Shown here: positions 8,824-51,983 of the stretch, piece after piece | Position numbering within the stretch: the stretch's first letter is position 1 | Layout of the letters: each line of letters opens with the position of its first letter | Virus record (IMG/VR): IMGVR_UViG_3300045988_123629 | DNA from: a virus | Reading direction: 5' to 3' (one strand) | DNA: 64,000 nucleotides | Made by a program: the position numbers and the translations under genes | Notes under the pieces: model-generated | Database searches by the model: none | Told to the model about the DNA's origin: nothing | What the model saw: the letters and a program-made list of their open reading frames with translations, nothing else

Positions 8824-9340
8824 TTAATTTCCCCCTTTTATCTTAAAAATTTCTAAAACCATTTTTAAATCGCGGTTTCGGTCCTTGCGTTTGATGCCGG
8901 TCGGACCACATTAACCGCCCTTATTTAAGCAAACAAAAATGCTCTTAAATTTTGTTATCATGTTCTTTTACTCCGCAAACGCTAACCCGTAGGTTGCCTT
9001 ACGCTTCCTTCCACCATCAAAGAACAATCAAACTCCATTTAAGAGCATTTTCTCGGTTTGTTTTCAGTATTCAATTTGGTTAGATTTAAATAGGAAATCT
9101 TACTTATTCCGCACCGATCAGCATTAAAATTAACAATAGTGCCAAATCACCTTTAATATAAATATTCCTTACCTATTCTTAATCACTCTTTCGTTGTGGT
9201 TAACGTCTTTTCTTCAGCCTGTTAGGAAAAGAAACCTATCGTTTTAAATAAACAACGCCGTCGCCATCTACGACCTTGCCACTTACTCAGGTACGATAAG
9301 CAGTTTTTGCGATTACTATAAAGTATACTGCCAAATACTT

Positions 9341-9430
9341 TGGTCGGAGATGAGGGAATCGAACCCACTCGAGCGACTGAGCGCACCGGTTTTACAGACC
9401 GGGGTGTCTACCTTATCACGTTAATCTCCG
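9341..9430 (-). tRNA. tRNA-Tyr (anticodon GTA), class II with a long variable arm.
   Basis: Manual fold. Acceptor CGGAGAU/AUCUCCG. Anticodon arm CCGGU-CUGUAAA-ACCGG. T-loop GGTTCGATTCC. CCA is encoded. Confidence 0.7.
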
Positions 9431-9770
9431 AAATATATTTCTTATAATCTTTAATAAATCGCAAATAATCTTCTCGATTATAAGGAATATCATTATATTT
9501 ATTAAAATCATGTGCAAAAGCGCAATAAATTAAAAAATCTAAATGCTTAGATTTTAATTGAACATGCCATTCATAAGAACCATCAAGTCTAGCTCCATAA
9601 GCGCGATGAAATAAAGTATATTCTCCAAACCGCGCTTTATCTGCAAGCACAATTTTAAAATCATCTCGATTATTATGAATATTTAAAACATCATAACCAA
9701 GACCATTTTTAGTAAACTTATGAGAACCACCAAAGGTTTCTTCACAATAATTTAAATAAATATCAAACAT
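9408..9770 (-). CDS. Hypothetical protein (120 aa).
   Basis: ORF from the six-frame track. Its 3' end overlaps the 5' end of tRNA-Tyr by about 20 nt. No recognisable motif. Confidence 0.3.
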   Translation of the reverse strand: MFDIYLNYCEETFGGSHKFTKNGLGYDVLNIHNNRDDFKIVLADKARFGEYTLFHRAYGARLDGSYEWHVQLKSKHLDFLIYCAFAHDFNKYNDIPYNREDYLRFIKDYKKYISEINVIR

Positions 9771-10004
9771 TTTTTATTTGAGGGTTTTAATTAGGTTAAC
9801 CCACAACCTCCGATAGTGTGTCTACTGGACCAAGGAAATACCCGATCGCCGCATTTCGCTCTTTAAAAGATGGACGCTTCTAATCCTACTTCCTATCGTA
9901 TAAAAGGACTTATCAATGACTTTTATACATATTGCCTTTATTACCTTTATAAACAAATTAGCATTACCCAGTGCTACCGCGAGGAGGTTTTGTTTTTAGC
10001 ACCG

Positions 10005-10093
10005 CAGCCCCGCTGGGATTCGAACCCAGAACGACTCCTTCAAAGGGAAAACGGTTTTAGAGACCGCCGTGTTAACCATTACACTACGGGGCA
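10005..10093 (-). tRNA. Putative amber-suppressor tRNA (anticodon CTA, reads UAG). It has a long, class II-like variable arm of about 21 nt and discriminator G73.
   Basis: Manual fold of UGCCCCG-UA-GUGU-AAUGGUUA-ACAC-G-GCGGU-CUCUAAA-ACCGU-(21-nt arm)-CUGGG-UUCGAAU-CCCAG-CGGGGCU-G. The anticodon loop is CUCUAAA, giving anticodon CUA. Pair 1:72 is U.U. CCA is not encoded. Confidence 0.65.
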
Positions 10094-10102
10094 ATAAACT
10101 CC

Positions 10103-10222
10103 TTAATTCAACTTACGGAGTTTTCGCTTCATCTTATTAATGAGACGCTGATTCATAACTTCACCATGGGAATACAATTTCGCAATGCGATTTTCATAAT
10201 GCTCTTTAGTGCGACAAATCAT
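10103..10222 (-). CDS. Small basic hypothetical protein (39 aa).
   Basis: AAGGAG RBS followed by an ATG. Sequence MICRTKEHYENRIAKLYSHGEVMNQRLINKMKRKLRKLN, then TAA. It is too short to appear in the ORF track. Confidence 0.35.
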   Translation of the reverse strand: MICRTKEHYENRIAKLYSHGEVMNQRLINKMKRKLRKLN

Positions 10223-10357
10223 AATTTTTCTCCTTAAATTGAATTTATGGTTCGGAGAGGATTATCTGCGTCATCTAGACCCAATTTTTTCATTCATTAT
10301 ATATTCTTTCAGAGTAGCAAATTCATAATCAAATATATAACTTAGCAGAACTCCGAT

Positions 10358-10555
10358 GGCACGGCCGGCTGGACTCGAACCAGCAGATGCAGGAGTCAGG
10401 GCTCAAAAGTTGGACTTGCACCAACATTCTCGGTTTTATAGGACCGGAAGCCTACTAACAGAACTTATATAATACTACTTAACCCCGTCATATTATATAA
10501 CCCATTTAACTGATTTTGAGAAAGTCCTGTGCCTTACCAATTTGGCGACGACCGT
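10358..10555 (-). tRNA. tRNA-Gln (anticodon TTG) gene interrupted by an insertion of about 125 nt in the anticodon loop. Either an intron-containing tRNA or a disrupted pseudogene.
   Basis: The 5' part (ACGGUCG-UC-GCCAAAUUGGUAAGGC-A-CAGGA-CUUU) and the 3' part (UGAC-UCCUG-CAUCU-GCUGG-UUCGAGU-CCAGC-CGGCCGU-G-CCA) together match the bacterial tRNA-Gln architecture. The acceptor halves are complementary. An insert of about 125 nt lies between anticodon-loop positions about 35 and 36. Confidence 0.5.
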
Positions 10556-10810
10556 ATAAAACAAGACACCAAAGAATTTCAATCAATTTATTTCATCTAT
10601 TTGTCGATTAATTCTCTCTTACCCCAAACAGACTACACCTTCGACAGGTAATCAAAAGTTATTGGTAAAACAATATCTCTGTTATCTTCTATTATAGAAA
10701 AGAAAATTCGCAGTTTGTGGTGTCTTTGATATATTTAAAACACGAACGCTGTGCTCAACCATTACACTAATTACAGCTGATTATTGGAATCGAACCAATC
10801 CTGCGTTCGG

Positions 10811-10886
10811 TGGTACGGGATGAGGGACTCGAACCCACGGCCTCCTGAATGTAAGTCAGATGCGCTACCAGCTGCGCTAATCCCGT
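10811..10886 (-). tRNA. tRNA-Val (anticodon TAC).
   Basis: Acceptor ACGGGAU/AUCCCGU. Anticodon arm UCUGA-CUUACAU-UCAGG. T-loop GGTTCGAGTCC. Discriminator A73 and an encoded CCA. A T-arm-only tRNA fragment lies immediately 3' at about 10775-10805. Confidence 0.7.
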
Positions 10887-11295
10887 ATAAGCAACTCAAT
10901 TAATAAAAGTTGCTACAAAATCCTTTTCAAACATATACATAGGAGCAGAAGCAAGACCGCCATCATCAATCTTACAATACAAAATAATATCTTCCGCATT
11001 GGGATTAGAAGCGCGGGCAATTGCTTTTACAAGCTCCTTATTATCAATGGAATTATAATAGCAACCAAAATCAACAGAAGTCTTTTTCATTTTTTATCAA
11101 TTCCTTTCTTAACTTTCTATATATATTATATTATATTTTTTATAAAAAATCAAAAAAGTTATTTCAAACTAGACACGTTAGAAAACATAATTTCAAGTTA
11201 TGTGCGTTAACCAATTTCGCCAAAACCCCAGTTGGAGTTTACAGGATTTGAACCCGTATACCTTTCTAATGAAAGAATTGCTGTATGTGTCTAAA

Positions 11296-11458
11296 TGGTC
11301 CGAGTGGAGCGACTCAAACGCTCGGCCTCCTGAACCCTAGTGGCAACAATGAGATTCGAACTCATAACAGCTATTAACTGACCTCGGGAGCGACCCTCAG
11401 ACATTACCATTCTGTCATCTTGCCAAATCAGGCGTTCTATCAACTGAACTACACCCGG
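11296..11458 (-). tRNA. tRNA-Pro (anticodon TGG) gene interrupted by an insertion of about 90-105 nt in the anticodon loop. The insert itself has a tRNA-like T-arm and acceptor.
   Basis: The 5' part is CCGGGUG-UA-GUUC-AGUUGAUA-GAAC-G-CCUGA-UUU. The 3' part is GGGU-UCAGG-AGGCC-GAGCG-UUUGAGU-CGCUC-CACUCGG-A-CCA. The acceptors pair across 7 bp. The mature loop would be UUUGGGU (anticodon UGG). The insert contains ATGAG-TTCGAAT-CTCAT. Confidence 0.45.
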
Positions 11459-11479
11459 AAATAAACTATATTTTTTATT

Positions 11480-11656
11480 TTAAACTAAATCAATTTCATC
11501 TAAAATAAAATTTTGTTTCTTTTTACAATGAACGCAATACATTGTTTTTCGATGTTTCTTTCCTTTGTAAGAAAATCTTTTAAAATTCTTAGCTTTAGGA
11601 GCGGTCATTTGTAAATGGCAAACAGGACAATGAAAATACCTTAATTGAAATTTCAT
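11480..11656 (-). CDS. Small zinc-ribbon protein (58 aa, CxxC...CxxC).
   Basis: GAGAGG RBS followed by an ATG. Sequence MKFQLRYFHCPVCHLQMTAPKAKNFKRFSYKGKKHRKTMYCVHCKKKQNFILDEIDLV, then TAA. It falls below the 60-aa cutoff of the ORF track. Confidence 0.45.
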   Translation of the reverse strand: MKFQLRYFHCPVCHLQMTAPKAKNFKRFSYKGKKHRKTMYCVHCKKKQNFILDEIDLV

Positions 11657-11828
11657 TATTTATACCTCTCAATCAAGACGATTTTTTAAATCACAATCAA
11701 GTATCCTATTAATTAAACTACATTTAAAAATACAGTTAAGGTCCTGCACCACACATCCGATCTTTGTTCCCCACATATAGGAGTGGGTATGGCCTTTAGG
11801 CAGAATCGTATTTGTTATTAACTGCCCA

Positions 11829-11905
11829 TGGTAGTCCGGGTGAGACTTGAACTCACGACCCTGCGATTATCAGTCGCATACTCTAGCCAGCTGAGCTACC
11901 GAACT
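11829..11905 (-). tRNA. tRNA-Ile (anticodon GAT).
   Basis: Acceptor AGUUCGG/CCGGACU. Anticodon arm UGCGA-CUGAUAA-UCGCA. D-arm GCUC-AGCUGGCUA-GAGU. T-loop GTTCAAGTCTCAC context. CCA is encoded. Confidence 0.7.
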
Positions 11906-11934
11906 ATAAACAAGACTAAATTATCAATACTATT

Positions 11935-11990
11935 GCTCTACCAATTGAGCTAACTCCCGATGGCCGGGAGCGAAGGACTTGAACCTCCAA
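11935..11990 (-). pseudogene. Permuted tRNA halves. A tRNA 3' half (T-arm, acceptor and CCA) is followed directly by the matching 5' half (acceptor and D-arm). There is no anticodon arm.
   Basis: The minus-sense sequence reads GGAGG-UUCAAGU-CCUUC-GCUCCCG-G-CCA-U-CGGGAGU-UA-GCUC-AAUUGGUA-GAGC. The two acceptor strands are mutually complementary, but their order is 3' half then 5' half. Confidence 0.35.
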
Positions 11991-12083
11991 CACATAGTTC
12001 CTTTTATGATAAAAATTGCTGTTTTAGTCTTTAATTTATATATTTATTATATAATATTTTTTTATAAATGTCAAAAAGTTTTA

Positions 12084-12941
12084 TTAAGTAGTTAAAAACG
12101 CATTATAACCTTTTGATTTTAAATCGTTAATTACTTTTATAGCATTTGCTTTGACAGAAAAAGCACCGACTTGAACTTTATAATACTTACCAATCTTACG
12201 AATATAAGCATTTTTATAACCTGCTCCAATAGTATCAGGTAATGCTTTAATTTTCAATAAGAAAGCATCAGCATTAGATTTAGATCCAAAAGCACCAAGT
12301 TGAACACGATAAATAATTTGTGGTTTGAGATAAATAGCCATTACATTATCGACTGCGCGATTGCCCCAATCTTTAGTGATACAAGTTCCATTATGAAGAA
12401 CTTTTGTGCTACCACCGCCATCAAGGTTAATTGCATAATCAACTTTTAATGCTAAAAGTAAATTCTACATTTCCGCGAATGCCATACCTGGCTTTTCAAT
12501 AGCGATTAAATAAATATTAAATTTATTATATGCTAATACTGTTCTACGGGCTTTATAATTTAACTCTTTAGCATAAGTAATTTGAGTTTTTTTACCAGCC
12601 TTAATTAATACTGGATAACCGCTAACAAAATCTTCAAACTTTTCTGTTCCAATTATACCGTATTTCAATTCACCATTAATGATACCAAAACCTTCTTTAT
12701 AAGAAGAAGTGGAATTAATGATTATACCATTGTCCATATAATTAAAACAAGTGCCACCATTATCCATGCTAAAGAAACCACCATTAGTTAAAATAGTAGG
12801 TTTAACCGCACAACTATCATAGTATTGCTTTAAAGTCTAACGCGGTTGAGCGCATAACGCCATATCTAACTTACTAATTTCTTCTTTTGGAATTTCAATA
12901 ATTTTTACATATGAATAATTACTTGGAGAATATATCTTCAT
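12084..12941 (-). CDS. Putative cell-wall hydrolase or lysin. It has a phosphodiester-glycosidase (NAGPA-like) domain followed by two C-terminal SPOR peptidoglycan-binding repeats. It contains two in-frame TAG codons.
   Basis: AAGGAAGG RBS followed by the ATG at 12939-12941. ORFs 12465-12767 and 12084-12341 are in the same frame, and I checked 12342-12464 triplet by triplet. Motifs: TNGGFF and INLDGGGST (NAGPA family), YRVQLGAFGSKSNA and YKVQVGAFSVKANA (SPOR). TAGs are at 12465-12467 and near 12840. Confidence 0.55.
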
Positions 12942-13005
12942 CAAATCACCTTCCTTAATATTTTTAAGGTTTCAATGATTCTTATTAATGAAATATACCC
13001 TCGAT

Positions 13006-13085
13006 TGGTACGGCTACTGGGACTTAAACCCAGATTATGACAGCTTAGAGGGCTGGTGCCATATTCAATTAGGCGATAGCCGTAA
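13006..13085 (-). tRNA. tRNA, probably Arg (anticodon TCT). It has an atypical C at position 33.
   Basis: Acceptor ACGGCUA/UAGCCGU, A73 and CCA. T-arm CUGGG-UUUAAGU-CCCAG. Anticodon arm CCAGC-CCUCUAA-GCUGU. Confidence 0.45.
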
Positions 13086-13196
13086 ATTTATCTACAAGAC
13101 TCTTTATTCTTCTTAATCCCACATTAAGCGCTTATTGCAAGCAAAAAAGTTGCTGTATGAGTCTTTATTTAGTTAAGAAAGGAAATACCATGACAA

Positions 13197-13272
13197 TGGT
13201 AGGGGTAGATGGGATCGAACCATCAATTCCTCAATTATAAGTTGAGAGCCTTACCGATTTGGCCATACCCCC
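13197..13272 (-). tRNA. tRNA with anticodon TAT (Ile-AUA decoding type) and a Gln-like D-arm.
   Basis: Acceptor GGGGGUA/UACCCCU with CCA. D-arm GCC-AAAUCGGUAA-GGC. Anticodon arm CUCAA-CUUAUAA-UUGAG. T-loop GGTTCGATCCC. Confidence 0.5.
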
Positions 13273-13279
13273 ATACCAT

Positions 13280-13876
13280 TTATATCTCTTCAGTCTTATT
13301 TTTAAATCTTTGACTATTTAGATACTTATAATTGGGAGTCAAAGAATGACAATTAGGGCACAATAATTCTAAATTATTCAAATCATTGTGAGTTCTATCG
13401 CCATCTTTATGATGAATCTCTAAAGGACATTTCCCAGTTGTTGGATTAATTTCTCCCCAACCACACTTCTAACATTTATTATTATATTTTTTGAAAAGAT
13501 AAGTTCTAATAGAATCAGAAATTTTAGTAGCATTTCCACTTTTCTTTAAACCACTTTCTTCTCCATTAGCAACTTTTTCAATATATTCTTTTCTTTTATA
13601 TTCCTACTAACAAGCATTAGAACAATATTTATACTATCCTTTATGTAATTCTTTACCGCAATTTAAACAATATTTTTCTTTAACTTTTCCTGTAGTATTA
13701 CAAATACATCCGCACGACTTTGTAGCTCCTCTTGTTAAATTGCCAGTTTTTATTTCTTTCTAATTTCCACAATCACATTGGCATAACCAATAAGTACTTC
13801 CATTACGACTTGGTGCTTTTTTAAGAGCAACTAATCTTCCAAATCTTTGACCAGTAATATCTAAAGCATTAGGCAT
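13280..13876 (-). CDS. HNH homing endonuclease with at least 5 in-frame TAG codons.
   Basis: AGGAGTG RBS followed by an ATG at 13874-13876. The stop is TAA at 13280-13282, and I checked that start and stop are in the same frame. Motifs: N-terminal ...YWLCQCDCGN(TAG)KEIKTGNLTRGATKSCGC and HNH core CPLEIHHKDGDRTHNDLNNLELLCPNCH. No ORF of 60 aa or more appears in the track because of the TAGs. Confidence 0.6.
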
Positions 13877-13972
13877 ATTTATATAACACTCCTTTTATTT
13901 TTCTTCTATTATATATAAATATACCTACTTTTAAACTAAGGGTTTAAGTCCAAAATTTTTCTAATAATTAAT

Positions 13973-14491
13973 TTAAGAAACCCGCGACTTCAACCAATAA
14001 ACTGACATCCGTTCATTAGGCTGATTTGTCATTTCACCTTTTGGCCCTAAAATTTCAGGATAAGGCCAAACATATTCATTAGCAGTCTTTTCGTCAGGAA
14101 ATTCAACTTCTGCATAACAAAATTTTCCATCAACTTCGCTAACCTCAATCAAACGATTAAGATTATAAATATCTTCGACCATATAATAATCCTTGATAAT
14201 AGGATTATAACCTTCGTGTCGAGTTTTCTTAATCATTTCATAGAAATCTGCGGAAATTGGCGTTTCAATTTCTTCACGAGAAAGACCATCACCATATTTA
14301 TAAGTCATCTTATAATCAACTTGATTGGTTTTAAGGTTAATAGCCTTCCGCACTCGAATTTCTTCAAGCACTTTACCATCATTATCAAAATCAATCATAA
14401 GATAAATTTGTTCAATTTTCTTATGACGAACACTTTTTTCCTTCATCCAAGAAGGGATATTTTTAATATCAAACTTACGTTCGATTTCCAT
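13973..14491 (-). CDS. CYTH-domain protein (triphosphate tunnel metalloenzyme, CyaB/ThTPase-like).
   Basis: The N-terminal MEIERKF motif is diagnostic of CYTH domains. A 172-aa ORF without TAG. Confidence 0.55.
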   Translation of the reverse strand: MEIERKFDIKNIPSWMKEKSVRHKKIEQIYLMIDFDNDGKVLEEIRVRKAINLKTNQVDYKMTYKYGDGLSREEIETPISADFYEMIKKTRHEGYNPIIKDYYMVEDIYNLNRLIEVSEVDGKFCYAEVEFPDEKTANEYVWPYPEILGPKGEMTNQPNERMSVYWLKSRVS

Positions 14492-14649
14492 CTTTATACT
14501 CCTTTAACTCTTGGAAATAAGTAAGAATCTACTCATTTTTATCAATAATCTCTGAACTATAATTATAATACTTCATAGAAGCAATCTAATCTTTCCATTC
14601 AGCGATTAACTAATCTACGGTATAATTCATAATTTCACCTACTTACTAT

Positions 14650-14725
14650 TGGGGTGACTGGCGGAATTCGAATCCGCGACCTTCTGAGCCACAATCAGAC
14701 GCTCTACCAACTGAGCTACAGCCAC
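14650..14725 (-). tRNA. tRNA-His (anticodon GTG).
   Basis: Acceptor GUGGCUG/CAGUCAC and discriminator C73. Anticodon arm UCUGA-UUGUGGC-UCAGA. T-loop GGATTCGAATTCC. CCA is encoded. Confidence 0.7.
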
Positions 14726-14726
14726 A

Positions 14727-14813
14727 TGGTGCTTTTGGTGAGACTCGAACTCACATGAACTTTACGCCCACTAGATTCTTAGTCTAGCATGTATACCAAT
14801 TCCATCACAAAAG
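14727..14813 (-). tRNA. Class II tRNA, probably Leu (anticodon AAG).
   Basis: Acceptor GCUUUUG/CAAAAGC and A73. Anticodon arm CUAGA-CUAAGAA-UCUAG. Long variable arm. T-arm GUGAG-UUCGAGU-CUCAC. CCA is encoded. Confidence 0.5.
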
Positions 14814-14909
14814 CATTTTCTTATTTTCATATATTTATTATATAATATTTTTTTTATAAAGTCAAAAGGGGCCGATGTAAAGTATATTCACTTTACATCG
14901 GCCGTCGCG

Positions 14910-16049
14910 TTAATAAAGATACTGTTCAATAGTGTTTGCGACCTTAGTTAAAACAACAGACTTAATTACGCGCTCATTTTTAGCCTTTTCAATAGCTTCC
15001 TTACGCTTTTCAGCATCAGTAATCGTCCAAAAGTCATCAGGATCAATGTAAACTTCAACCTTTTTCGGATCAGCTGTAATCATACCCTTTTCAATCTTAA
15101 TCGAATCAGGAGTCAAGGCATAACGAATAGTCTTACTATCTGAGGCATAACCATCATACCATCTTTGATGATTGGTATTAGGATTGTTAAACAAATTAAC
15201 TGAAGCACCATAGGTATTATATACATCACCATTTACCGTAGTAATAGTGATATTGAAACGAACATTGGAAGTCTGAGAGATATTAAGGTCTTCAAGAGTT
15301 TCTGCCACACCATAACCCTGATTAAGTTCAAAAGCAATCGCTCGAAGATAATCATAAGTCATATTAACAGTGCGAGAAAAATTCACAATATCCTTAATAC
15401 CATCTGCGTATTTAGGCTTAACCTTATCAGTCAAATACTCAACGATCTCTTCCTCAGTTGGGAAAGTAATCTTAAAATGATAATGGAAACGACCAGGTCT
15501 ATTCAAAAGATAAGTGCTAAGTCGATCAACTTCATTACAAGTAATGACAAAAAGCTTCTTACCATTATCAAGACCATCAAAAAGAGAAAGCATTTCTTCC
15601 TGCGGAGAGGGGCCCGCATGGTCGTCAGAGTTATTAGAGAAATTCTTTTCAAACTCATCAAAAATAATTACGACTTCTTGCTCGATACTGGAAATAAAAT
15701 CTGCGATACCAGGCATATAAGTATTAGCCAAAAGGACAGGATATCCGTTTTCAATAGCGTGATGAGAAAGAATACGAGCAAACAATGACTTACCAATACC
15801 CTTCTGACCACTTAAAATAACACCAAGATTACGGTCTGAATACTTAAAAGAATTAAGCACCTTATTGACTTTAACTTCGTGATTACCATAAATTTTTTCC
15901 TCATTGACCGCAAGATCTGGACGAGAAGAAAGATAAAAACCTGCCATCTTACTAAAGCAGACTTCAAAAGACATAAGCGGAAGTCGCTTATAAGTCTTAA
16001 CGTCCTCGCCATAAATCTGATAGCGAGAACCAGCGTTTACAATATTCAT
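14910..16049 (-). CDS. AAA+ ATPase.
   Basis: Walker A GQKGIGKS, Walker B VIIFDEFE and the NRPGRFH sensor/arginine motif typical of classic AAA modules. A 379-aa continuous ORF. Confidence 0.65.
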   Translation of the reverse strand: MNIVNAGSRYQIYGEDVKTYKRLPLMSFEVCFSKMAGFYLSSRPDLAVNEEKIYGNHEVKVNKVLNSFKYSDRNLGVILSGQKGIGKSLFARILSHHAIENGYPVLLANTYMPGIADFISSIEQEVVIIFDEFEKNFSNNSDDHAGPSPQEEMLSLFDGLDNGKKLFVITCNEVDRLSTYLLNRPGRFHYHFKITFPTEEEIVEYLTDKVKPKYADGIKDIVNFSRTVNMTYDYLRAIAFELNQGYGVAETLEDLNISQTSNVRFNITITTVNGDVYNTYGASVNLFNNPNTNHQRWYDGYASDSKTIRYALTPDSIKIEKGMITADPKKVEVYIDPDDFWTITDAEKRKEAIEKAKNERVIKSVVLTKVANTIEQYLY

Positions 16050-16076
16050 ACTTAATCCTCTTAATTTAAAATTTAA

Positions 16077-16165
16077 TGGCGAAGGAGAGAGGATTCGAAC
16101 CTCCGGGCCCCAAATGAGGCCAACACCTTAGCAGGGTGCCGCATTCAACCAGCTCTGCCACTCCT
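16077..16165 (-). tRNA. tRNA-Ser (anticodon GCT).
   Basis: Acceptor GAAGGAG/CUCCUUC and G73. Anticodon arm GCACC-CUGCUAA-GGUGU. Long variable arm. T-loop GGTTCGAATCC. CCA is encoded. Confidence 0.7.
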
Positions 16166-16259
16166 TCATAATATATAAATAGAATAATTTACTGCTTAAA
16201 CAGATGATATCCTCGTTTAAACCATACCACACCCTCACCCAACGCCTCAATTATTCTAT

Positions 16260-16496
16260 TTATTTACACCTATATATAATTAGCTTAGGCTTAATACTAT
16301 ATCCACAATAACTACGCCAAGTGCGATAATTACTAAAAATATAATATTTTCTATCAGGTTTAATATTACCAAATAAATTTAAAACTCTCAGTCCTTGCTT
16401 ATAATGAGAAGTTTTATTATTCACTTGATAATTGGCCCAATCAAGAATTTCTTGACCGCTAAAACAAGGATTTTTATAGCTTAAAATATTTTTCAT
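16260..16496 (-). CDS. Hypothetical protein (78 aa).
   Basis: ORF from the track. No motif. Confidence 0.3.
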   Translation of the reverse strand: MKNILSYKNPCFSGQEILDWANYQVNNKTSHYKQGLRVLNLFGNIKPDRKYYIFSNYRTWRSYCGYSIKPKLIIYRCK

Positions 16497-16906
16497 ATCC
16501 TACCTCCTCTGCTTTTCTGGACTTGGAACCAGCCTATGGTAGCATTAGATAGGCGACCGCACTTATCGTTCGCTAGGACAAAACTCGCGCTCATCGCCAA
16601 AGATCAAATCATCAACATCTTTAAACATATCAGACAATCCTCCTTCTTTATTTATTTTTATGAAACAAAATAGAGAGTAGAAAAACAATTCATTTCTATG
16701 GAAGTGAGAGAAAACAACAATCTATATATCAAACGAAAGGGGAAATCAAACAGAAAGATAAGTAAGAAAATGAACTAGATGTAAAAGACTCTCTCTATTG
16801 TATAGTCTTTTGTTTCTATATATTTAAATATATAGAAGAGTAGCCTTTCTAACAGGCATCCCAACAGCCTCGAGCAGCAAAGAGGTTCCTCATTTGTTGG
16901 TCTTTT

Positions 16907-16982
16907 GGTGGGCGGAGACAGAATCGAACTGCCGACGCTAGGATCTTCAATCCTACGCTCTACCAACTGAGCTATCCGCCCA
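16907..16982 (-). tRNA. tRNA-Phe (anticodon GAA).
   Basis: Acceptor GGGCGGA/UCCGCCC. Anticodon arm UAGGA-UUGAAGA-UCCUA. T-loop GTTCGATTC. CCA is encoded. Confidence 0.75.
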
Positions 16983-17195
16983 TAATATTTATATTGCTAC
17001 GATTCCCGATTCTCCACGTAGTCATTCTTCCTTTAAAATTGACTAAAAGAATGTGATATTTTATTTATCGTACTACATCAACAATATAAATAGAACAAGA
17101 CGCTATAAACAATCTTAAGCATATGTATTTTGTACATTGATGTTTTAAAGTTTGCTGTTAGCGCCTTAATTATTCAAAAAGAAAGGAAAGATAAA

Positions 17196-17399
17196 TTATG
17201 CGTTTGCGGGTTCCGCGTTCTTCGGTCTGCGGAACTTTACATAACGCTCACCATCATATCGGGACATCCAAATGATTGTGCCATCCTTAAAATGGAAATC
17301 ATAAGTAAAATCTTTATCCTGTTCATCAACCTGATGGCAAAAGCCCTTACCATACTTCTTAGAATAAACCTTGTCGCCGGGCTTAAACTTAAACTTCAT
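17196..17399 (-). CDS. Hypothetical small protein (67 aa).
   Basis: ORF from the track (MKFKFKPGDKVYSKKYGKGF...). No TAG. Confidence 0.35.
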   Translation of the reverse strand: MKFKFKPGDKVYSKKYGKGFCHQVDEQDKDFTYDFHFKDGTIIWMSRYDGERYVKFRRPKNAEPANA

Positions 17400-17444
17400 T
17401 TAGATATCTCCTTTTGGATTATTTTAATTTACAAGACACAAATG

Positions 17445-17518
17445 AAATATTTGTTGGAATTGAACCAACTACAATTTGTTTGACAGACAAATACTCTACC
17501 AATGAGTTAAAATACTTT
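17445..17518 (-). tRNA. tRNA-Asp (anticodon GTC), AT-rich.
   Basis: Acceptor AGUAUUU/AAAUAUU. D-arm ACUC-AUUGGUA-GAGU. Anticodon arm UUUGU-CUGUCAA-ACAAA. T-arm GUUGG-UUCAAUU-CCAAC. Confidence 0.55.
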
Positions 17519-17597
17519 CAATAGAAAATGATTGCTGTGTGTGTCTTTATTACTGTGATACCTCTTAAAAGAGGGCTTACGGCATTACGCCTAATAT

Positions 17598-18377
17598 TTA
17601 TATGTTTTTCCATTCATCATCAGTGTATAAATTTATAATTTTTTTTGTATTAGGTAAATTATAAGAAATACACCATTTTCTAATGGAATTATCACTTACA
17701 TGATATATATTCGCGATAGAAGTAAAACTTTTATTACGAATCAATTTTTTTAATTTATCACGAGAAGGTCTTTTAATTTTTCGATGTTCTTTAGCAGAAC
17801 ATTTCTAACATTTTTGACCTTTTCCGCTCCACTCTCCACCACATATAGGACAAACTTTTTTTAAAAGTTTTTTCTCTTCTTCTGGTTTATTTTTATCAAA
17901 ACGAGAATAATGTAAAGGATAATTTAATTTTTCATTAAACCAAGTTCTTCCAACATTTATATCTCTAATAGTATCTTTACTAACTTTATATTTTTTAGCT
18001 AATTCCGAATGATTAACTACACCTAACTTATCATTAATTAAAATATTTTGAATATCTTGGACTTCCTAATAATTTAATTTTTGATAAATTACGCGATAAT
18101 CTCCACCTATTGTCTAATTATACTCTGGTTTATAATAATCAATCCAATAAGTTTCTCTACTATTTAGATTATCAATTTCACATTCTTCTAACACTTCAAA
18201 TATAAAATTAGAAACACCATATTTTCTGAAACTTTGATATAAGGGATAATTATAGCTTTTACTCTTTTCATCTTGGGAGCTATATATATGATTTTCCCAA
18301 CGTTCTGCTATATTTCTTGACTATCCAATATAACAATGATTATTTATTTTATTAGTAATTTTATAAATTCCTATCAT
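17598..18377 (-). CDS. GIY-YIG homing endonuclease with about 5 in-frame TAG codons.
   Basis: AGGAGAT RBS followed by an ATG at 18375-18377. The stop is TAA at 17598-17600, in frame. Motif GIYKITNKINNHCYIG(TAG)SRNIAERWENH, which is GIY...YIG...R...H. There is a C-terminal Cys cluster (CPICGG...C(TAG)KC). Confidence 0.55.
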
Positions 18378-18460
18378 ATTACCATCTCCTTACACTATAA
18401 TTAAAATTTTATTTAAGATAATTATAATTTTTCGACCTCGAAAGTATTTAGGTGATGATA

Positions 18461-18534
18461 TGGTTGCGGTCGGGCGATTCGAACGCCGTTTTTGGCTTAT
18501 GAGGCCAACGAGCTACCTTTGCTCCACCACCGCA
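18461..18534 (-). tRNA. tRNA with anticodon CAT (elongator Met or Ile2 type).
   Basis: Anticodon arm UUGGC-CUCAUAA-GCCAA. D-arm GAGC-AAAGGUA-GCUC. T-loop TTCGAAT. CCA is encoded. Confidence 0.55.
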
Positions 18535-18535
18535 A

Positions 18536-18612
18536 TGGTCGGTCAAATTAGAATCGAACTAATATCCCTTGTCTTATGAGAACAATGCTCTACCAGTTAA
18601 GCTATTGACCGA
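18536..18612 (-). tRNA. Second tRNA with anticodon CAT (Met or Ile2 type).
   Basis: Acceptor CGGUCAA/UUGACCG. Anticodon arm UUGUU-CUCAUAA-GACAA. T-arm AUUAG-UUCGAUU-CUAAU. CCA is encoded. Confidence 0.6.
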
Positions 18613-18850
18613 AAATAGGATAGATATAATATTCATGACTATTATATCTATTGGACTTTCTAACCTATCGTCCCAAAATTCTTAATAGACCTCATCAAAT
18701 GGCCAACTTTTGTAGAGGCTTTTGTGCGACCACCTGCGCACTTACATAGACATAAGAATAATGCCAACATATGGCGACCCCGACGGGTGCCGACCCCGCT
18801 ATCTCCAGCGTGACAGGCTGGCGGCTCTGCTGACTGCCCCCAGGGCCATA

Positions 18851-18927
18851 TGGTACTCCCAGCCGGATTCGAACCGGCGACTCCAACGTGAAAGGCTGGT
18901 GACTTAAGTCCGCTTGTCGATGGGAGC
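18851..18927 (-). tRNA. tRNA-Glu (anticodon TTC).
   Basis: Acceptor GCUCCCA/UGGGAGU. Glu-type D-arm GAC-(12-nt loop)-GUC. Anticodon arm CCAGC-CUUUCAC-GUUGG. T-arm GCCGG-UUCGAAU-CCGGC. CCA is encoded. Confidence 0.6.
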
Positions 18928-19003
18928 ATATTAAATAGACTATAAAGCCGTCTATTAGGGCAAATAATATTTCAGTTCCTTACTAAAAGCGATAAAAGTA
19001 AGG

Positions 19004-19078
19004 TGGTGGCGCGAAGGGGATTCGAACCCAACTATCGCGAGAGTGAGAATCTCGCATCCTAAACCGTTAGACGACCGC
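19004..19078 (-). tRNA. tRNA, possibly Glu (anticodon CTC). The stems are imperfect.
   Basis: 3' end ...UUCGAAU-CCCCU-UCGCGCC-A-CCA. Anticodon arm CGAGA-UUCUCAC-UCUCG. One mismatch in the acceptor stem and a weak T-stem. Confidence 0.35.
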
Positions 19079-19520
19079 GTCATATTTAAGCACATCTATC
19101 ATAATCTTGATTTTTGTGCTTTTGTTTTCGCTTAAACGAGCCTTTACCTTTCTTCGCAGGAACTTTAAATCCTCTGCGCCGAAACAATTGAAGATACTCA
19201 TTAAGCTCTTCCTTATTCTTTTTCATATAACTTTTATTCACGGTATTCATCCTCATCTTCATAAAGGGAAAGATCCTGATAAGCAGCATATTCATCACTC
19301 TGAATCTCGCAAGCATAGCTTTCATAGTAATCATTATACATAATTTAAATCTTCCTTTCTTAACTTTCTATAAATATTATAACTTATTTTTTATAAAATG
19401 TCAAAAGATTAAAAGACCAACCAAAAGCGATATTTGTTAACGATGGTCGCCACTCCACCGCCGTCAATATTCACAAACACTTACCATTTTCACACTAACC
19501 TACTAATTAAAGGAGGTGAC

Positions 19521-19604
19521 TGGTGCTTCGAGAGAGACTTGAACTCTCACCATCCGTTCGGATAATCGGGTTTGAGCCGATCGCGTCTGCCAATTCCGCC
19601 ATCA
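19521..19604 (-). tRNA. tRNA-Leu (anticodon CAA), class II.
   Basis: Acceptor GCUUUGA/UCGAAGC and A73. Anticodon arm AUCGG-CUCAAAC-CCGAU. Long variable arm. T-arm GAGAG-UUCAAGU-CUCUC. CCA is encoded. Confidence 0.7.
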
Positions 19605-19614
19605 AAGCATAACT

Positions 19615-19745
19615 AAGAGGATTTTTAAGAAGAATCCTCAAAACTTCTTTCTAATCATCTAATTGGATTTTTAAGAAGAACCCTCAAAACTTCTTTCTAA
19701 TCTAACGGAAGTTTTAAGAAGATCTTCCAACTTCTTTCTAATCTT
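19615..19745. repeat. Three tandem hairpin repeats of about 40 bp (TTTAAGAAGAAyCCTCAAAACTTCTTTCTAATC) immediately adjacent to tRNA-Leu(CAA).
   Basis: Three direct repeats seen by eye at about 19625, 19667 and 19708. Each contains the inverted repeat AAGAAG...CTTCTT. Confidence 0.6.
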
Positions 19746-20155
19746 AATCGCACTTTAGGGCGGCCGTCCCTTCGCGGCGTCACGATTTGCATAATTTACT
19801 GTATTACCATTTTATTTTCCGAAAAAGGCTACAAACCAAAACGGGAGTTATTTAAGAATAACTTCTAGACTACGCTAACTGCTCAAATTTTCTCTTCTTA
19901 GTGGGAAAAACTTTCTTAGCGCTGAAACCAAAATCACTATTAGCATTTTGTATATATTATCTTATTGTATATAAGTTTTATTAATATACCTTATCTATTA
20001 TATCATTTAGTATATTGTATTAATGTTTAATTAATAAGATAATATTTCTGGCTGCTTTTATCACCAATCATATAATTGGTTATATTGGGCAATGCTCCCA
20101 AACTTGCGGTTTACTTAACCGCCGTGCTTACTCTTTACACCATATAACCATATAA

Positions 20156-20235
20156 TGGTGGACCTCGTGAGAATCGAACTCACCTGATTTTCTGTGTGCA
20201 AGACAGACGACCACGCCATGCAGTCCCGAAGCCCG
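20156..20235 (-). pseudogene. Degenerate tRNA-Ala-like element (anticodon arm with TGC). The D-arm is truncated.
   Basis: T-arm GUGAG-UUCGAUU-CUCAC, acceptor 3' GAGGUCC-A-CCA and anticodon arm UCUGU-CUUGCAC-ACAGA are all present. Only about 12 nt lie between the acceptor and the anticodon stem. Confidence 0.35.
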
Positions 20236-20322
20236 AAATGCGACTTATTTATGTATAGATGGAGTCGCCAACCACCTGCGTTCAAAGTCCGCAAGCCTTC
20301 AACGCATTCCCAGGGAGGGATT

Positions 20323-20397
20323 GGTGCTGGAGAAAGGACTCGAACCTTCAGATTAATGATCCTAAATCATTCGTCTATGCCAATTCGACTACACCAG
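20323..20397 (-). tRNA. Class I tRNA with anticodon TAG (Leu-CUA decoding type). It has no long variable arm.
   Basis: Acceptor GCUGGUG/CUCCAGC, A73 and CCA. D-arm GUCG-AAUUGGCAUA-GACG. Anticodon arm AAUGA-UUUAGGA-UCAUU. T-arm GAAGG-UUCGAGU-CCUUU. An alternative fold gives a 6-bp stem with a 5-nt loop. Confidence 0.4.
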
Positions 20398-20637
20398 CAA
20401 ATAAAGAGTTTTATAACCCACATCGCGAAGATTCGAACTTCGTCAACCGTTAGGACTCGAACCAACTTTTACTCTTTTGGATTCCCAGAACCCATAGCCT
20501 TGATTAATGTGAGTATAGCCACTACTTCACAATAAGTTTTACTTCGCTTTCTTATATTTAGTCGGGCGTTTTCCGCAAACCACATACTCTTTCGATCGGT
20601 GGTAGTTTAAACTTACAAAATCCGTGTTAACGCCCCA

Positions 20638-20714
20638 ATGGCGGGAGAGATAGGATTCGAACCTATGACATCTTGTTTAACAGACAAGCGCTCTAACCAA
20701 CTGAGCTACACTCC
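20638..20714 (-). tRNA. tRNA-Asn (anticodon GTT).
   Basis: Acceptor GGGAGUG/CUCUCCC. D-arm GCUC-AGUUGGUUA-GAGC. Anticodon arm CUUGU-CUGUUAA-ACAAG. T-arm AUAGG-UUCGAAU-CCUAU. CCA is encoded. Confidence 0.7.
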
Positions 20715-21206
20715 CATAAAAGAAGGACTTTTTAAAATCCTTACTTTATATATTTATTATATTATATTTTTTTTAAAAAATCAACTTTTCTCTTTTACCC
20801 AAATTTTTTTATTTTCTTTTTTCTTTCTTCATTTTATATAAATATTATATAATATTTTTTATAAAATGTCAATAAGGTCTTTGAATTGGCATTAAATCAT
20901 CTTCTGAAAGAAGCCACTTTTCACCATGCTCATCAAGGACTTCAATCTGATAATTTAATACTCGAATGACAGTACATTTAAGATACTGTCTACGATAACA
21001 ACGACCACGATAAGGGACAAAACAATAAGAATTACCAACTTCAATATTCATTATTTATTTTCTCCTTTCTCAACTTTCTATATATATTATATTATATATT
21101 TTTAATAAAATCAAAAAAGTTCTTTTTGTTTAAGTAGATTTAACAAATTTACCACAATTTTAGTCGAAATCAGGAACACCGCGTGAAGGTATTGTGGATA
21201 GTTCCC

Positions 21207-21288
21207 GCAGGCGCCGTAGGATTCGAACCCACACCGCAAGGTTTTGGAGACCCGCATGCGACCGTTACACCAGACGCCTATAAAACAA
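21207..21288 (-). tRNA. tRNA-Trp (anticodon CCA).
   Basis: Acceptor AGGCGUC/GGCGCCU and G73. Anticodon arm CGGGU-CUCCAAA-ACCUU. T-arm GUGGG-UUCGAAU-CCUAC. Confidence 0.55.
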
Positions 21289-21302
21289 GACCTTAACTTT
21301 GT

Positions 21303-21383
21303 CCGAAAAATGGATTTGAACCATTAACTTAATCTTGAAGGATTATGACCTAACCTTTAGTCTATTCTGGAAGTTATTTTTGC
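21303..21383 (-). tRNA. Irregular Glu-type tRNA with a non-canonical anticodon loop. The best fold gives a 6-nt loop CUUCAA, so the anticodon is ambiguous (UUC or UCA).
   Basis: Acceptor UCCAGAA/UUUCGGA with one mismatch. Glu-like D-arm GAC-UAAAGGUUAG-GUC. Perfect 5-bp stem UAAUC/GAUUA enclosing CUUCAA. T-arm AAUGG-UUCAAAU-CCAUU. It is the first gene after the promoter at about 21390-21440. Confidence 0.4.
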
Positions 21384-21463
21384 TGTAAAGGTCTTTCTTT
21401 ATTTTATAAATATATTATATATTATTTTTTTAAAAATGTCAAAAAAATTTTTAATTGGTTATC

Positions 21464-45716: not shown

Positions 45717-46094
45717 TCACTTATTGATGAAAGTATTCAAAAAATCGGCAATTACATCATCATCAGTTCTCTTGACCTTCTTAACCTTTACTTTTTCACT
45801 CTTGGGAAAAAGCACGTCAAGAAGATCGTTAACCCCGGTCATAAGACCGTAAACCTCAGCAAAGATGTTCTCCACATCGGACGCGGTCAACGCGGAATCC
45901 TTGTAGCCATTAAGAGCGGCATACTCGTTAATCCGATCGGCGATTTCCTGCGCGAGCGCGGTCTTCCGATCGGCCTGCTTGGTTTCCTTCTCCACCTGCT
46001 TAACCGCATCGTTCAGAGACTTAGCCATTTCGTCCGCAATAGCCTGAGCGTCCTCACCATTTTTCAGACGAGCAATAATATCATTCATATCCAT
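45717..46094 (-). CDS. Hypothetical protein (125 aa, helical, acidic).
   Basis: AAGAGG RBS followed by ATG (MDMNDIIARL...). The promoter is TTGACA-N17-TATAAT at about 46125-46153. The track ORF extends spuriously upstream. Confidence 0.45.
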   Translation of the reverse strand: MDMNDIIARLKNGEDAQAIADEMAKSLNDAVKQVEKETKQADRKTALAQEIADRINEYAALNGYKDSALTASDVENIFAEVYGLMTGVNDLLDVLFPKSEKVKVKKVKRTDDDVIADFLNTFINK

Positions 46095-47027: not shown

Positions 47028-47144
47028 AAAATCCTCTCTATTGATTGAGGTTTACCATCGTTCTCTCAACCATTATTTTTTACCCTTTTTTGCTTGTTTT
47101 TGGGTGAAAAACCGCATTTTTCAGCGGTTTTTCACCCTTTTTCG

Positions 47145-47552: not shown

Positions 47553-47652
47553 TTCTTTTGCCCCCTTTCAAGTATGATTATAACACCGCCGTCAGCAAAT
47601 GTCAAGAGAAATTTTTGGGAGCGCCTAATTTTTTTTAGGCGCTCCCCCTGAA

Positions 47653-49288: not shown

Positions 49289-49304
49289 CTCTTTCGTTTG
49301 ATGT

Positions 49305-49340: not shown

Positions 49341-49356
49341 CTATTCCCTATTTTTT

Positions 49357-51930: not shown

Positions 51931-51983
51931 TTATTTTCCCCTTTCATTTGATACATTTATTATACCATTGGAGTAGGGTTTTG

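Follow-up and report, generated by a model that had tools for sequence, protein, structure and literature searches.

Organization of the tRNA island

The sequence analyzed here is a 64,000-nt stretch of viral DNA from IMG/VR (record IMGVR_UViG_3300045988_123629; the whole stretch is called the window below), which carries a 12-kb island of tRNA genes, tRNA-like elements and candidate ribozymes (Table 1). All tRNA-type features, at 9341-21395, lie on the minus strand. A first-pass annotation of the sequence had described this region as about 18 regular tRNAs accompanied by many irregular members, taken as signs of active tRNA-gene turnover and possibly of additional non-standard decoders. By ARAGORN, Rfam and reading of the sequence, every oddity that it listed is present within a few bases of its assigned position. 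The regular set is there too and is larger than counted: ARAGORN at default settings and Rfam at or above the gathering score each return 21 tRNAs, with a union of 23, and ARAGORN run locally recovers two further genes if introns are permitted and another two if the threshold is relaxed. The analysis below adds the strand, the significance of a tRNA(CUA) suppressor, theta ribozymes, nested tRNAs, a twister-like element and a recurrent RNA frame. It indicates that most of the irregular tRNAs are something other than decaying genes, many of them being members of a conserved family of framed small RNAs, represented in the window by F1-F7.

The window is part of one large phage with a genome of ~160-196 kb. 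Nine close relatives in IMG/VR (L001-L009; contigs of 160-196 kb) share 88-99% identity in the AAA ATPase of the island, and further, more distant relatives exist; a megablast search of GenBank phages with window positions 1-25000 gave no match. Eight near-identical promoter-like sites of the form TTGACA-N17-TATAAT are distributed within the island.

Table 1. Features of the island, ordered by position in the window
Feature	Coordinates	Strand	Basis or remark
tRNA-Tyr(GUA), class II, encoded CCA	9341-9430	minus	ARAGORN; Rfam 35.6 bits
Candidate theta (minimal HDV-like) ribozyme 1	9950-10003	minus	G1 abuts 3' end of tRNA(CUA)
Predicted amber-suppressor tRNA(CUA), no CCA, U1.U72, G73	10004-10093	minus	ARAGORN; Rfam 57.8 bits
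tRNA-Glu(UUC), interrupted at 36/37; tRNA-shaped insert of 123 nt (~10397-10519)	10357-10555	minus	ARAGORN with introns
F7: variant loop ACAAACUGCGAA, small hairpins, 165 nt	10562-10726	minus	ends 6 nt upstream of split tRNA-Glu
T-arm-containing element closed by helix CGAACGC/GCGUUCG, ~70 nt	10740-10810	minus	fold, relatives
F6: permuted tRNA-like	11169-11293	minus	Rfam tRNA 24.5 bits
tRNA-Pro(UGG), anticodon loop split by an 87-nt insert	11296-11458	minus	ARAGORN with introns
F5: circularly permuted tRNA-like body, 121 nt	11911-12031	minus	promoter-like TTGACA-N17-TATAAT at 12046-12074
tRNA-Arg(UCU)-like, 11 nt downstream of F4	13006-13083	minus	Rfam 46 bits; ARAGORN relaxed
F4: minimal frame, small-hairpin cargo, 71 nt	13095-13165	minus	motif, fold
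tRNA-Ile(UAU), canonical	13197-13272	minus	ARAGORN; Rfam 65 bits
CYTH-like open reading frame (ORF)	13973-14491	minus	phrog_6660 match; no Pfam match
AAA ATPase	14910-16049	minus	Pfam AAA; phrog_2376
Twister-P1-like candidate, one hairpin missing	16501-16551	minus	Rfam 39 bits, gathering score 67.2
F3: minimal frame, small hairpins; closing helix with G.U pair (AAGGC/GUCUU)	17096-17167	minus	motif
F2: encloses AU-rich tRNA 17444-17516, no CCA	17432-17547	minus	ARAGORN, Rfam, motif
GC-rich tRNA-Asp(GUC)-like, atypical T-loop	18772-18847	minus	ARAGORN, relaxed threshold only
tRNA-Ala(UGC), G3.U70, A73, atypical D-arm	20156-20234	minus	ARAGORN; below Rfam tRNA threshold
Class-I tRNA(UAG), Leu-like D-loop, A73-CCA	20322-20398	minus	ARAGORN; Rfam 59.8 bits
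Element with two T-arm-like hairpins in closing helix	20410-20520	minus	no tRNA call
Candidate theta ribozyme 2	21152-21206	minus	abuts tRNA-Trp; descriptor and L3 pattern
tRNA-Trp(CCA), no CCA tail, 6 nt downstream of F1	21207-21279	minus	ARAGORN; Rfam
F1: encloses '6-nt-loop' tRNA-like body 21301-21371	21286-21395	minus	promoter-like site at 21414-21442

A recurrent frame encloses the irregular elements

Each of the seven framed elements begins with 5'-AAGAC, two to four variable nucleotides, (A/U)ACAGCAA and a U-rich run, encloses a cargo, and ends in complementary nucleotides and GUCUUG-3'. The two ends form a closing helix, present in every minimum free energy (MFE) fold of the frames, and beyond it lies an asymmetric internal loop that opens with (A/U)ACAGCAA; helix and loop together are termed the H-element. 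The sequence AAGAC-N(3-8)-ACAGCAA occurs four times against 0.06 expected, and GTCTTGT... five times against 0.98. The G.U pair in the closing helix of F3 points to an RNA of the transcribed strand. F1, F4, F5 and F7 end 5-11 nt upstream of the 5' end of a tRNA.

The cargos take several forms. The body inside F1 had been read as a Glu-like tRNA with a 6-nt anticodon loop, possibly decoding UCA. The 6-nt loop CUUCAA is indeed there (Rfam 44 bits; ARAGORN assigns a 2-nt 'anticodon'). The decoder reading is not supported, since the loop differs in relatives and the body lacks CCA: close relatives have AUUUAA, also of 6 nt, and homologs have the 7-nt loops CUACAAA and CUAAAAA. With no conserved anticodon and an acceptor C.C mismatch besides, the F1 body departs from a canonical tRNA, and its cargo type has a recognizable homolog in the distant 239-kb contig L055. 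The tRNA inside F2 has the anticodon GUC (Asp) here, in contrast to GUU (Asn) in every close relative and in distant contig L132, a single-base switch.

F5 contains the permuted halves described at 11935-11990, and the reading of the 3' half as lying 5' of its matching 5' half is correct. Its parts are a T-arm (11972-11988), an acceptor 3' strand with G73 and CCA (11961-11971), one linker nucleotide, an acceptor 5' strand (11953-11959) that completes a 7-bp acceptor, and a D-arm (11934-11952); the MFE z-score is -2.9. Permuted tRNA genes of Cyanidioschyzon merolae and two-piece transfer-messenger RNA (tmRNA) genes likewise run from 3' half through a short linker to 5' half, and F5 matches their order of T-arm, acceptor 3' strand, CCA, linker and 5' half. 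It differs from both: the two anticodon-stem strands are present with no loop nucleotides between them, the H-element sits at that junction, and F5 has neither a bulge-helix-bulge motif nor a tag-reading frame. F6 is ordered T-arm, acceptor 3' strand, AACU, acceptor 5' strand, D-arm and an intact anticodon arm (CUUGAAA), with the frame helix exactly at the position of a class-II variable arm. The F6 anticodon is UGA (Ser) in the window and UAA (Leu) in L006 (6498-6618), both of them class-II isotypes. The proposed additional decoders thus find no support, the permuted halves and the 6-nt-loop body being cargos of a conserved, covarying frame.

Other readings of these elements were set aside. 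The 3' end of F4 (UCUUGUAGAU) resembles a Cas12a repeat, a resemblance rejected because only two copies have it. Hairpin, hammerhead and pistol ribozymes, retrons, miniature inverted-repeat transposable elements and terminators misfit in motif or geometry and had no Rfam match.

The frame helix is conserved across phages and bacteria

In viral contigs, matches to TAAAGAC-N(3-5)-ACAGCAA are mostly due to chance until filtered for a complementary 3' strand. The frame is then found in at least 73 unique copies on many unrelated large viral contigs, within tRNA arrays at 14 of the 15 loci checked. Pairing was assessed on copies that had not been selected for it. Two or more inner pairs form in 35 of 40 motif combinations, against 21% under the null (P = 9e-19), and the first two variable pairs next to AAGAC/GUCUU are paired in 96 of 112 unique copies, with all four Watson-Crick types represented. 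The covariation score over these 112 copies is 0.243, compared with 0.092 for shuffles (0/500) and 0.03-0.10 for slid partners. Covariation of this strength shows, at the level of sequence, that the frame is a real RNA helix shared by a family of RNAs.

The complementary topology, a hairpin of the form N'GUCUUG-loop-AAGACN-ACAGCAA, is found inside tRNA genes: 20 of 28 matches with a paired inner helix fall within ARAGORN tRNAs versus none of 54 unpaired ones (P = 5e-13). In the clearest class (L085, L243, L307, L323 and others), the module interrupts the anticodon stem between nt 28 and 29 and the anticodon arm remains canonical, with loops such as CUGAUAA, CUGUCAC, CUUCUAA, CUUUUAA and UUUGGGU; in L082 and L048 the H-element lies in the anticodon loop. 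A general reading of the H-element as a simple anticodon-loop intron was dropped because ARAGORN's 'intron' parses are partly wrong; the 'tRNA-Lys(CUU) intron' called in L085, for example, is really a tRNA-Pro(UGG) with its insert between nt 28 and 29.

Rfam holds no model of the H-element, and such genes are matched by the tRNA model only. At default settings ARAGORN finds no tRNA at L307:3904-4140, L323:380-640, L301:7683-7872 or on similar contigs from metagenome-assembled genomes (MAGs). Default tRNA finders thus miss H-bearing elements or mislabel them with wrong isotypes and false 'introns', and H-bearing tRNAs beside the protein genes described below, DUF2828 and RtcB, escape routine annotation.

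The frames are linked to DUF2828/DUF7788, a family with a predicted Ro60 fold

On MAG contigs of Lachnospiraceae and other Clostridia, a tandem pair of H-bearing RNAs lies immediately upstream of a gene for a ~500-aa DUF2828+DUF7788 protein. The order is a tRNA with varying anticodon, a minihelix of 'long acceptor stem + T-arm' type, then DUF2828. An RtcB ORF directly follows DUF2828 in L307 (Pfam), and a close RtcB homolog has the same position in L329 (tblastn); none was seen there in the other contigs examined, L301 and L323 having other genes downstream. Among loci fetched by the RNA pattern alone, DUF2828 is present at 19 of 48 viral loci with the true motif versus 1 of 149 with chance matches, and at 14 of 37 genomic loci versus 0 of 83, at a median distance of ~200 nt between motif and gene. 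Conversely, 40 of 80 viral loci fetched by the DUF2828 profile contain the motif, with 57 sites on the gene strand and 0 on the opposite strand (0.15 expected), peaking at -400..0. These reciprocal searches show that the RNA family is genomically coupled to DUF2828, for which at least 5,812 homologs and at least 554 viral loci were found.

An AlphaFold model of DUF2828 (predicted local distance difference test score 77.5, predicted template modeling score 0.75) was compared with known structures. The top six Foldseek matches are all Ro60/TROVE proteins (E 5e-9 to 2e-5) aligned over the full length, and nothing else aligns over the full length; they include the Ro60 of Thermus phage phiLo, Xenopus and human Ro60, and Deinococcus radiodurans Rsr. 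The model has both hallmarks of the Ro60 family, a HEAT-repeat ring and a C-terminal von Willebrand factor A (vWA) domain with a MIDAS motif, in which DxSxS is invariant. By sequence the relationship to Ro60/TROVE is marginal (E ~1). The predicted structure thus shows DUF2828/DUF7788 to be a Ro60 (TROVE + vWA) paralog. The literature searched contained no paper assigning a function to DUF2828; papers merely listing it record the domain in plants also.

The same position would suit a cis-acting leader or processing element, that is, an operator or stability element in the 5' leaders of DUF2828 mRNAs and of tRNA precursors, for instance a site bound in autoregulation or one that admits or blocks an RNase, as opposed to a trans-acting RNA. 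Such an element would account for the motif peak 0-400 nt before DUF2828 genes, with all sites on the gene strand, and for the four of seven window frames that end 5-11 nt before a tRNA 5' end, as frames do in L055, L063 and L108; the junction CAA/UUUU presumably also resembles an RNase E-type site. Yet many copies are far from any DUF2828 gene, including the seven in the window, which has no such gene in 64 kb, others lie inside tRNAs or around tRNA-like cargos, and F1 and F5 have promoter-like sites of their own. The upstream position does not discriminate, since canonical Y RNAs also lie just upstream of rsr/Ro60 (PMC4201824, PMC12135203). We regard a purely cis-acting role as very unlikely.

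A Y-RNA-like reading of the frames

In our favored reading, which we consider moderately probable, the island comprises four layers of tRNAs and small RNAs in a phage that reads TAG as Gln, and F1-F7 are a Y-RNA-like family whose frame binds a Ro60-like DUF2828/DUF7788 protein. The first layer would consist of ~23 working tRNAs, among them the suppressor tRNA(CUA), tRNA-Ile(UAU) and class-I tRNA(UAG); the second of RNA-based processing by two candidate theta ribozymes and a twister-like element; and the third of two tRNAs with tRNA-shaped inserts in their anticodon loops. The framed RNAs, the most striking of the irregular members, would form the fourth. They are read as Y-RNA-like mimics because their family combines a 5'-3' stem, a loop motif, a permuted tRNA-like module and, on other contigs, a position upstream of a Ro60-fold gene.

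The closest precedent is the YrlA type of Y RNA that partners Ro60 (Rsr). There, too, the 5' and 3' ends pair next to a conserved internal-loop motif, the effector mimics a tRNA whose parts are permuted (T-arm, closed acceptor stem, D-arm), and a Ro60-fold gene follows closely downstream of the RNA genes, in some cases with RtcB, as in operons of the type rsr-yrlBA-rtcBA, where the Ro60-binding motif GNCGAAN0-1G is on the 5' strand (PMC4201824). The YrlA of Mycobacterium smegmatis, whose acceptor has 7 bp, undergoes cleavage by RNase P and CCA tailing (PMC4201824), and a 7-bp acceptor with CCA is found here also. The Rfam YrlA model (RF02553) matches F5 with E 2.4e-4 in 14 kb and 4e-6 locally, aligning T-arm, closed acceptor and D-arm. 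An effector module of this type lies between the strands of the 5'-3' stem in F5 and F6, whereas F1 and F2 enclose bodies in normal order and F3 and F4 none. The H-element differs from YrlA in its motif, ACAGCAA beside an AAGAC/GUCUUG helix, in a partner that Pfam does not recognize as TROVE, in being grafted in and around complete tRNAs with varied anticodons, in the occurrence of cargo-free mini-frames, and in having many copies per genome dispersed in tRNA arrays. A phage precedent also exists in Thermus phage phiLo, in which two Y-like RNAs (Yrl1/Yrl2) lie directly upstream of a Ro60-fold protein and a 5'-3' stem flanks a loop with a conserved motif (PMC12135203). That stem/bulge/stem arrangement resembles ours, and phiLo Ro60 ranks among the structures that best match the DUF2828 model; the proteins are ~15% identical in sequence, the motif of the phiLo RNAs is CGAA, embedding in tRNAs is not described for them, and the host range differs, the phages here being of the gut Clostridia type.

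Mechanistically, F1 and F5 would be transcribed from their own promoters and the other frames co-transcribed with tRNAs. As F1, F4, F5 and F7 end 5-11 nt before a tRNA, an RNase P cut would define their 3' ends. The frame helix would keep the RNAs closed, a Ro-like ring would bind the helix and the ACAGCAA loop, and the tRNA-like cargo would recruit tRNA-handling enzymes (RNase P, CCA-adding enzyme, RtcB, nucleases), act as a decoy for them, or stabilize the RNA. The outcome may be quality control and repair of tRNAs during infection, and a role in tRNA surveillance or decoying would fit the same scheme.

Several observations weigh against this reading. The canonical Ro60-binding motif GNCGAAN0-1G is absent from the frames, which have (A/U)ACAGCAA instead; the YrlA score of F5, 34.2 bits, is half of the gathering score of 69; and most frames fold, as single sequences, marginally better than shuffles (z -1.3 to -2.9). 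A position just upstream of DUF2828 genes is equally expected of a cis-regulatory leader, and H-elements in otherwise normal tRNAs, together with N73-CCA in several permuted copies, could mark a processing or splicing signal. No DUF2828, Ro60 or RtcB gene was detected by tblastn and hidden Markov models in the 64-kb window or in the +/-10-kb flanks of close relatives, nor was an RNA ligase, Ro60, RtcB or CCA-adding enzyme among 30 window ORFs by Pfam and PHROG scans; a partner would therefore have to be encoded elsewhere in the ~160-196-kb genome or supplied by the host. For the second layer, theta 1 scores 26 bits with the Rfam HDV-F-prausnitzii model, below gathering, theta 2 has no Rfam match, and the twister-like core aligns (E 1.2e-5, 2.6e-7 locally) short of the RF03160 gathering score.

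A more general proposal, to which we give about an even chance, is that the AAGAC/GUCUUG helix and the ACAGCAA loop together form the cognate module of an unrecognized, very large family of Ro60 paralogs, and that this module has been grafted onto tRNA bodies in all possible topologies: surrounding them, as circular permutations, and inside the anticodon stem of tRNAs with canonical anticodon arms. If true, Ro-type ribonucleoproteins would be assembled directly on tRNAs and tRNA mimics in gut phages and Clostridia, possibly coupled with repair by RtcB or with the module's excision and ligation, and would serve as a phage-host system of tRNA quality control or counter-defense. The large domain-of-unknown-function family DUF2828 would gain a function and an RNA partner, the Ro60-Y RNA paradigm would come to cover abundant gut phages and Clostridia and acquire a new recognition motif, and the H-element would be the first Y-type module built into tRNAs that otherwise look decodable. 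The short F4 and F5 RNAs would provide concrete, testable substrates. The proposal bears on why large phages carry tRNA arrays and on how tRNAs are protected or repaired against host anticodon nucleases. Theta ribozymes, code 15 and phage tRNA introns are already known; for the H-element family, its three tRNA topologies and the link to a Ro60-fold DUF2828 family, no description appears to exist in Rfam 15 or the literature searched, with an earlier in-silico link between DUF2828 and TROVE possible.

Nested tRNA genes and a possible splicing signal

Two tRNAs of the island, tRNA-Glu(UUC) and tRNA-Pro(UGG), are interrupted by inserts that have the shape of a tRNA as well, showing an acceptor-like stem and a T-arm, and removal of the insert restores a perfect 76-nt cloverleaf in both. 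The tRNA-Pro insert corresponds to a 'tRNA' found by Rfam only (11341-11424). This gene is intact in five relatives and split in the window only; its insertion is therefore recent. The split tRNA-Glu, on the other hand, is present in the whole clade, and the conserved part of its insert was found in this clade only. Relative to the diverged copy in L005, changes are seen at 7 of 20 stem pairs; every one is double and compensatory, and no pair is broken. The substitution pattern thus shows selection on the split gene as a tRNA; because the exons are kept as tRNA, the insert must be removed in vivo, likely by cuts of RNase P/RNase Z type followed by ligation. Neither the 87-nt nor the 123-nt insert has an Rfam match to a group I intron at E <= 10, and both fall below the size of Intron_gpI (~200 nt or more). 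They resemble the 'enigmatic' tRNA introns of Lak megaphages, which are also tRNA-shaped anticodon-loop inserts too short for group I and one of which may encode a tRNA (PMC6784885); the phage group differs, and here the compensatory evolution of the exons indicates a functional interrupted tRNA. The selection on the split tRNA-Glu bears on how such introns are handled.

The H-element could be a bacterial and phage analog of the archaeal bulge-helix-bulge, cut on both sides of its helix by an endonuclease, with the exons joined by a ligase (RtcB or Rnl). H-inserts would then be removed, permuted precursors circularized and matured to normal tRNAs by RNase P and 3' trimming, and cargo-only frames turned into circular RNAs. 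This view is consistent with the permuted frames being exact circular permutations of H-bearing tRNAs, with the N73-CCA and short linker of several independent permuted copies (F5, L006, L080, L100), with the canonical 7-nt loops left when some anticodon-loop H-inserts are removed (L082, L048), and with the tRNA-splicing ligase RtcB in the same operon on at least one MAG contig (L307; probably also L329). The split tRNA-Glu moreover means that this clade must remove tRNA inserts, and 'enigmatic' phage tRNA introns are on record (PMC6784885). Against it, the position of the element varies, from outside the acceptor stem (F1, F2) to the place of the anticodon loop (F5), the variable-arm site (F6) and nt 28/29 beside an intact anticodon arm (L085, L243, L307, L323 and others). 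Cargo-free frames offer nothing to splice, F5 has no anticodon nucleotides to join, no endonuclease candidate was found, and the partner protein has a predicted RNA-binding Ro60 fold rather than a nuclease fold. We therefore hold a splicing or circularization signal to be unlikely, if somewhat less so than a cis-acting leader, and retain the Y-RNA-like reading.

Theta ribozymes and the reading of TAG

The two theta candidates share a P1 starting at G1 with a G.U closing pair, a P1.1 dinucleotide, P2, P3, a short L4 and a C opening J4/2. Theta 1 has P1 GGUGCUA/UAGCACU, P2 AAAACAAA/UUUGUUUA, P3/L3 CC-UCCUCGC-GG and J4/2 CUAA; theta 2 has P1 GGGAACU/UGUUCCU, P2 CCACAAUA/AAUUGUGG, L3 UUCACGC and the same J4/2, CUAA. 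The descriptor for ribozymes resembling that of hepatitis delta virus (HDV) is loose, giving hundreds of matches, A/G/U inactive controls included, and it is the conserved L3 (~UYCNCGC) that singles out these two. In both, G1 is 1 nt after N73-C74 of a tRNA, tRNA(CUA) and tRNA-Trp respectively, the only regular, unframed tRNAs without CCA. Cleavage is predicted exactly at the 3' ends of these tRNAs, leaving N73-C74. Theta 1 is kept in relatives behind two different tRNA(CUA) genes, whereas theta 2 is polymorphic, L002 (5905-5970) lacking it though its upstream tRNA-Trp is identical.

By these features both copies are assigned to the published theta-ribozyme class, whose members adjoin gut-phage tRNAs, notably amber suppressors of code-15 phages and tRNAs without CCA (PMC10879173). 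The window copies match it in their nested double pseudoknot, short L4 and J4/2 C, and in abutting CCA-less tRNAs, one of them the tRNA(CUA) of a code-15 phage. Nothing essential sets them apart, save that the second follows a tRNA-Trp and is polymorphic among relatives.

In-frame TAG is present in genes at 1-24.7 kb (tail-like, glycine-rich, lysis-type and homing-endonuclease genes) and absent from those at 24.8-43 kb. Where the window has TAG and relatives a different codon, that codon is CAA or CAG in 13 of 21 cases; from these codon comparisons we infer that TAG is read as Gln (code 15) in this phage and that the tRNA(CUA) at 10004-10093 is the suppressor. In L006 and L009 a different gene, a class-I tRNA(CUA), precedes the same theta ribozyme, and both types have a mismatched 1:72 pair and G73. 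The variable arm of the window tRNA(CUA) contains a 17-nt insert whose fold is a 3-bp stem capped by the 7-nt loop CUUUGAA. This loop is of the tRNA-Gln(UUG) anticodon type and possibly serves as an anticodon mimic for glutaminyl-tRNA synthetase.

The twister-like element lies in front of an ORF starting at 16496, with its 3' strand, GAGGAGG, overlapping the Shine-Dalgarno sequence of that ORF.

Regular tRNAs, spacers and the extent of turnover

Nearly all regular tRNAs encode CCA and are preceded by UAU or UUAU; only tRNA-Trp, tRNA(CUA) and the tRNA bodies inside frames lack CCA. The tRNA(UAU), flagged as unusual, is canonical and common in these AT-rich phages. The class-I tRNA(UAG) with its Leu-type anticodon was correctly recognized and belongs to a conserved family with compensatory changes in 14 of 21 pairs across four lineages and an invariant, tRNA-Leu-like D-loop, GAAUUGGCA; it is most simply a tRNA-Leu minus the long arm. 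Both are conserved in this phage group as ordinary, functional tRNAs. In L007 (16911-16990) and L009 (16489-16568), a tRNA with anticodon UCA (called selenocysteine, 'SeC', by ARAGORN) lies ~600 nt downstream of tRNA-Tyr, and its counterpart is not called in the window.

The fragment reported as consisting of a T-arm only has a T-arm hairpin at 10783-10799, which is part of the closed ~70-nt element at 10740-10810 (MFE z = -2.0; 93-100% identical in relatives). Three further elements described as truncated or GC-rich all exist. That at 18772 is Asp-like; at the syntenic position, directly after tRNA-Glu(UUC), ARAGORN at default settings calls a tRNA-Asp(GUC) in L003 and L007, and by blastn the window segment matches L002, L005, L006 and L009, not L003 or L007. 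The second, at 20156, is called as a tRNA-Ala. The third, at 20410-20520, folds no better than shuffles and is 95-99% identical in relatives. Conserved, GC-rich spacers lie directly 3' of tRNAs on the minus strand at 9245-9340, 11735-11828, 19435-19520, 20238-20321 and 20552-20640. On computational folding they showed no convincing shared RNA family; TGGCGAC occurs nine times against 3.4 expected, and UGGCGAC is common to three of a set of conserved spacers that includes 20410-20520. Upstream of tRNA-Leu(CAA), two to three tandem ~45-nt hairpin units (AGAAAGAAG...CUUCUU) occupy 19613-19750.

The irregular elements might on this basis be turnover debris, that is, truncated, rearranged or decaying tRNA genes produced by duplication and recombination, with a few non-standard decoders among them. 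Turnover as such is real: the tRNA complement differs among close relatives, the disruption of tRNA-Pro is limited to the window, L006 and L009 have a different tRNA(CUA) gene, theta 2 is present or absent, and the F2 anticodon is GUC in the window and GUU elsewhere. The spacers at 9245-9340, 19435-19520 and 20405-20525, which fold no better than shuffles, and the GC-rich Asp-like and AGU 'tRNA' elements with degenerate loops fit debris also. The headline elements do not represent decay, however. Framed elements have a common covarying helix and an invariant motif across unrelated phages and bacteria and are linked to a specific protein family, DUF2828; the F1-type cargo is homologous in distant L055; and compensatory changes mark the evolution of class-I tRNA(UAG) and of the split tRNA-Glu. 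Decay and turnover account for some spacers and polymorphisms and do not explain the conserved, protein-linked frames, and debris as a general account seems to us highly improbable, whereas a Y-RNA-like family accommodates them.

Neighboring genes and further observations

The genes for tRNA-His and tRNA-Leu(AAG) lie between the AAA ATPase and an ORF which we take to be CYTH-like solely from its N-terminal EIERKF motif (13973-16049, minus strand). By tblastn, homologs of the ATPase and of this ORF flank H-bearing tRNAs in L085, L158, L173, L185, L229, L287 and L330, and in L012 the ATPase homolog adjoins a DUF2828 gene. HNH and GIY-YIG homing-endonuclease genes within the island (13280-13876 and 17598-18377, minus strand) contain four to five in-frame TAG codons, and the ARAGORN calls for L008, L001/L003 and others include tRNAs interrupted by ~470-900-nt inserts with endonuclease-like ORFs. 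At 46000-64000 the GC content of the window is 0.42-0.44, versus 0.30-0.40, and many small ORFs, nearly all without in-frame TAG, mostly have no Pfam match; a weak polynucleotide-kinase-phosphatase-like match was obtained at 51984-52484 and a MazE/AbrB-like match at 53604-54056.

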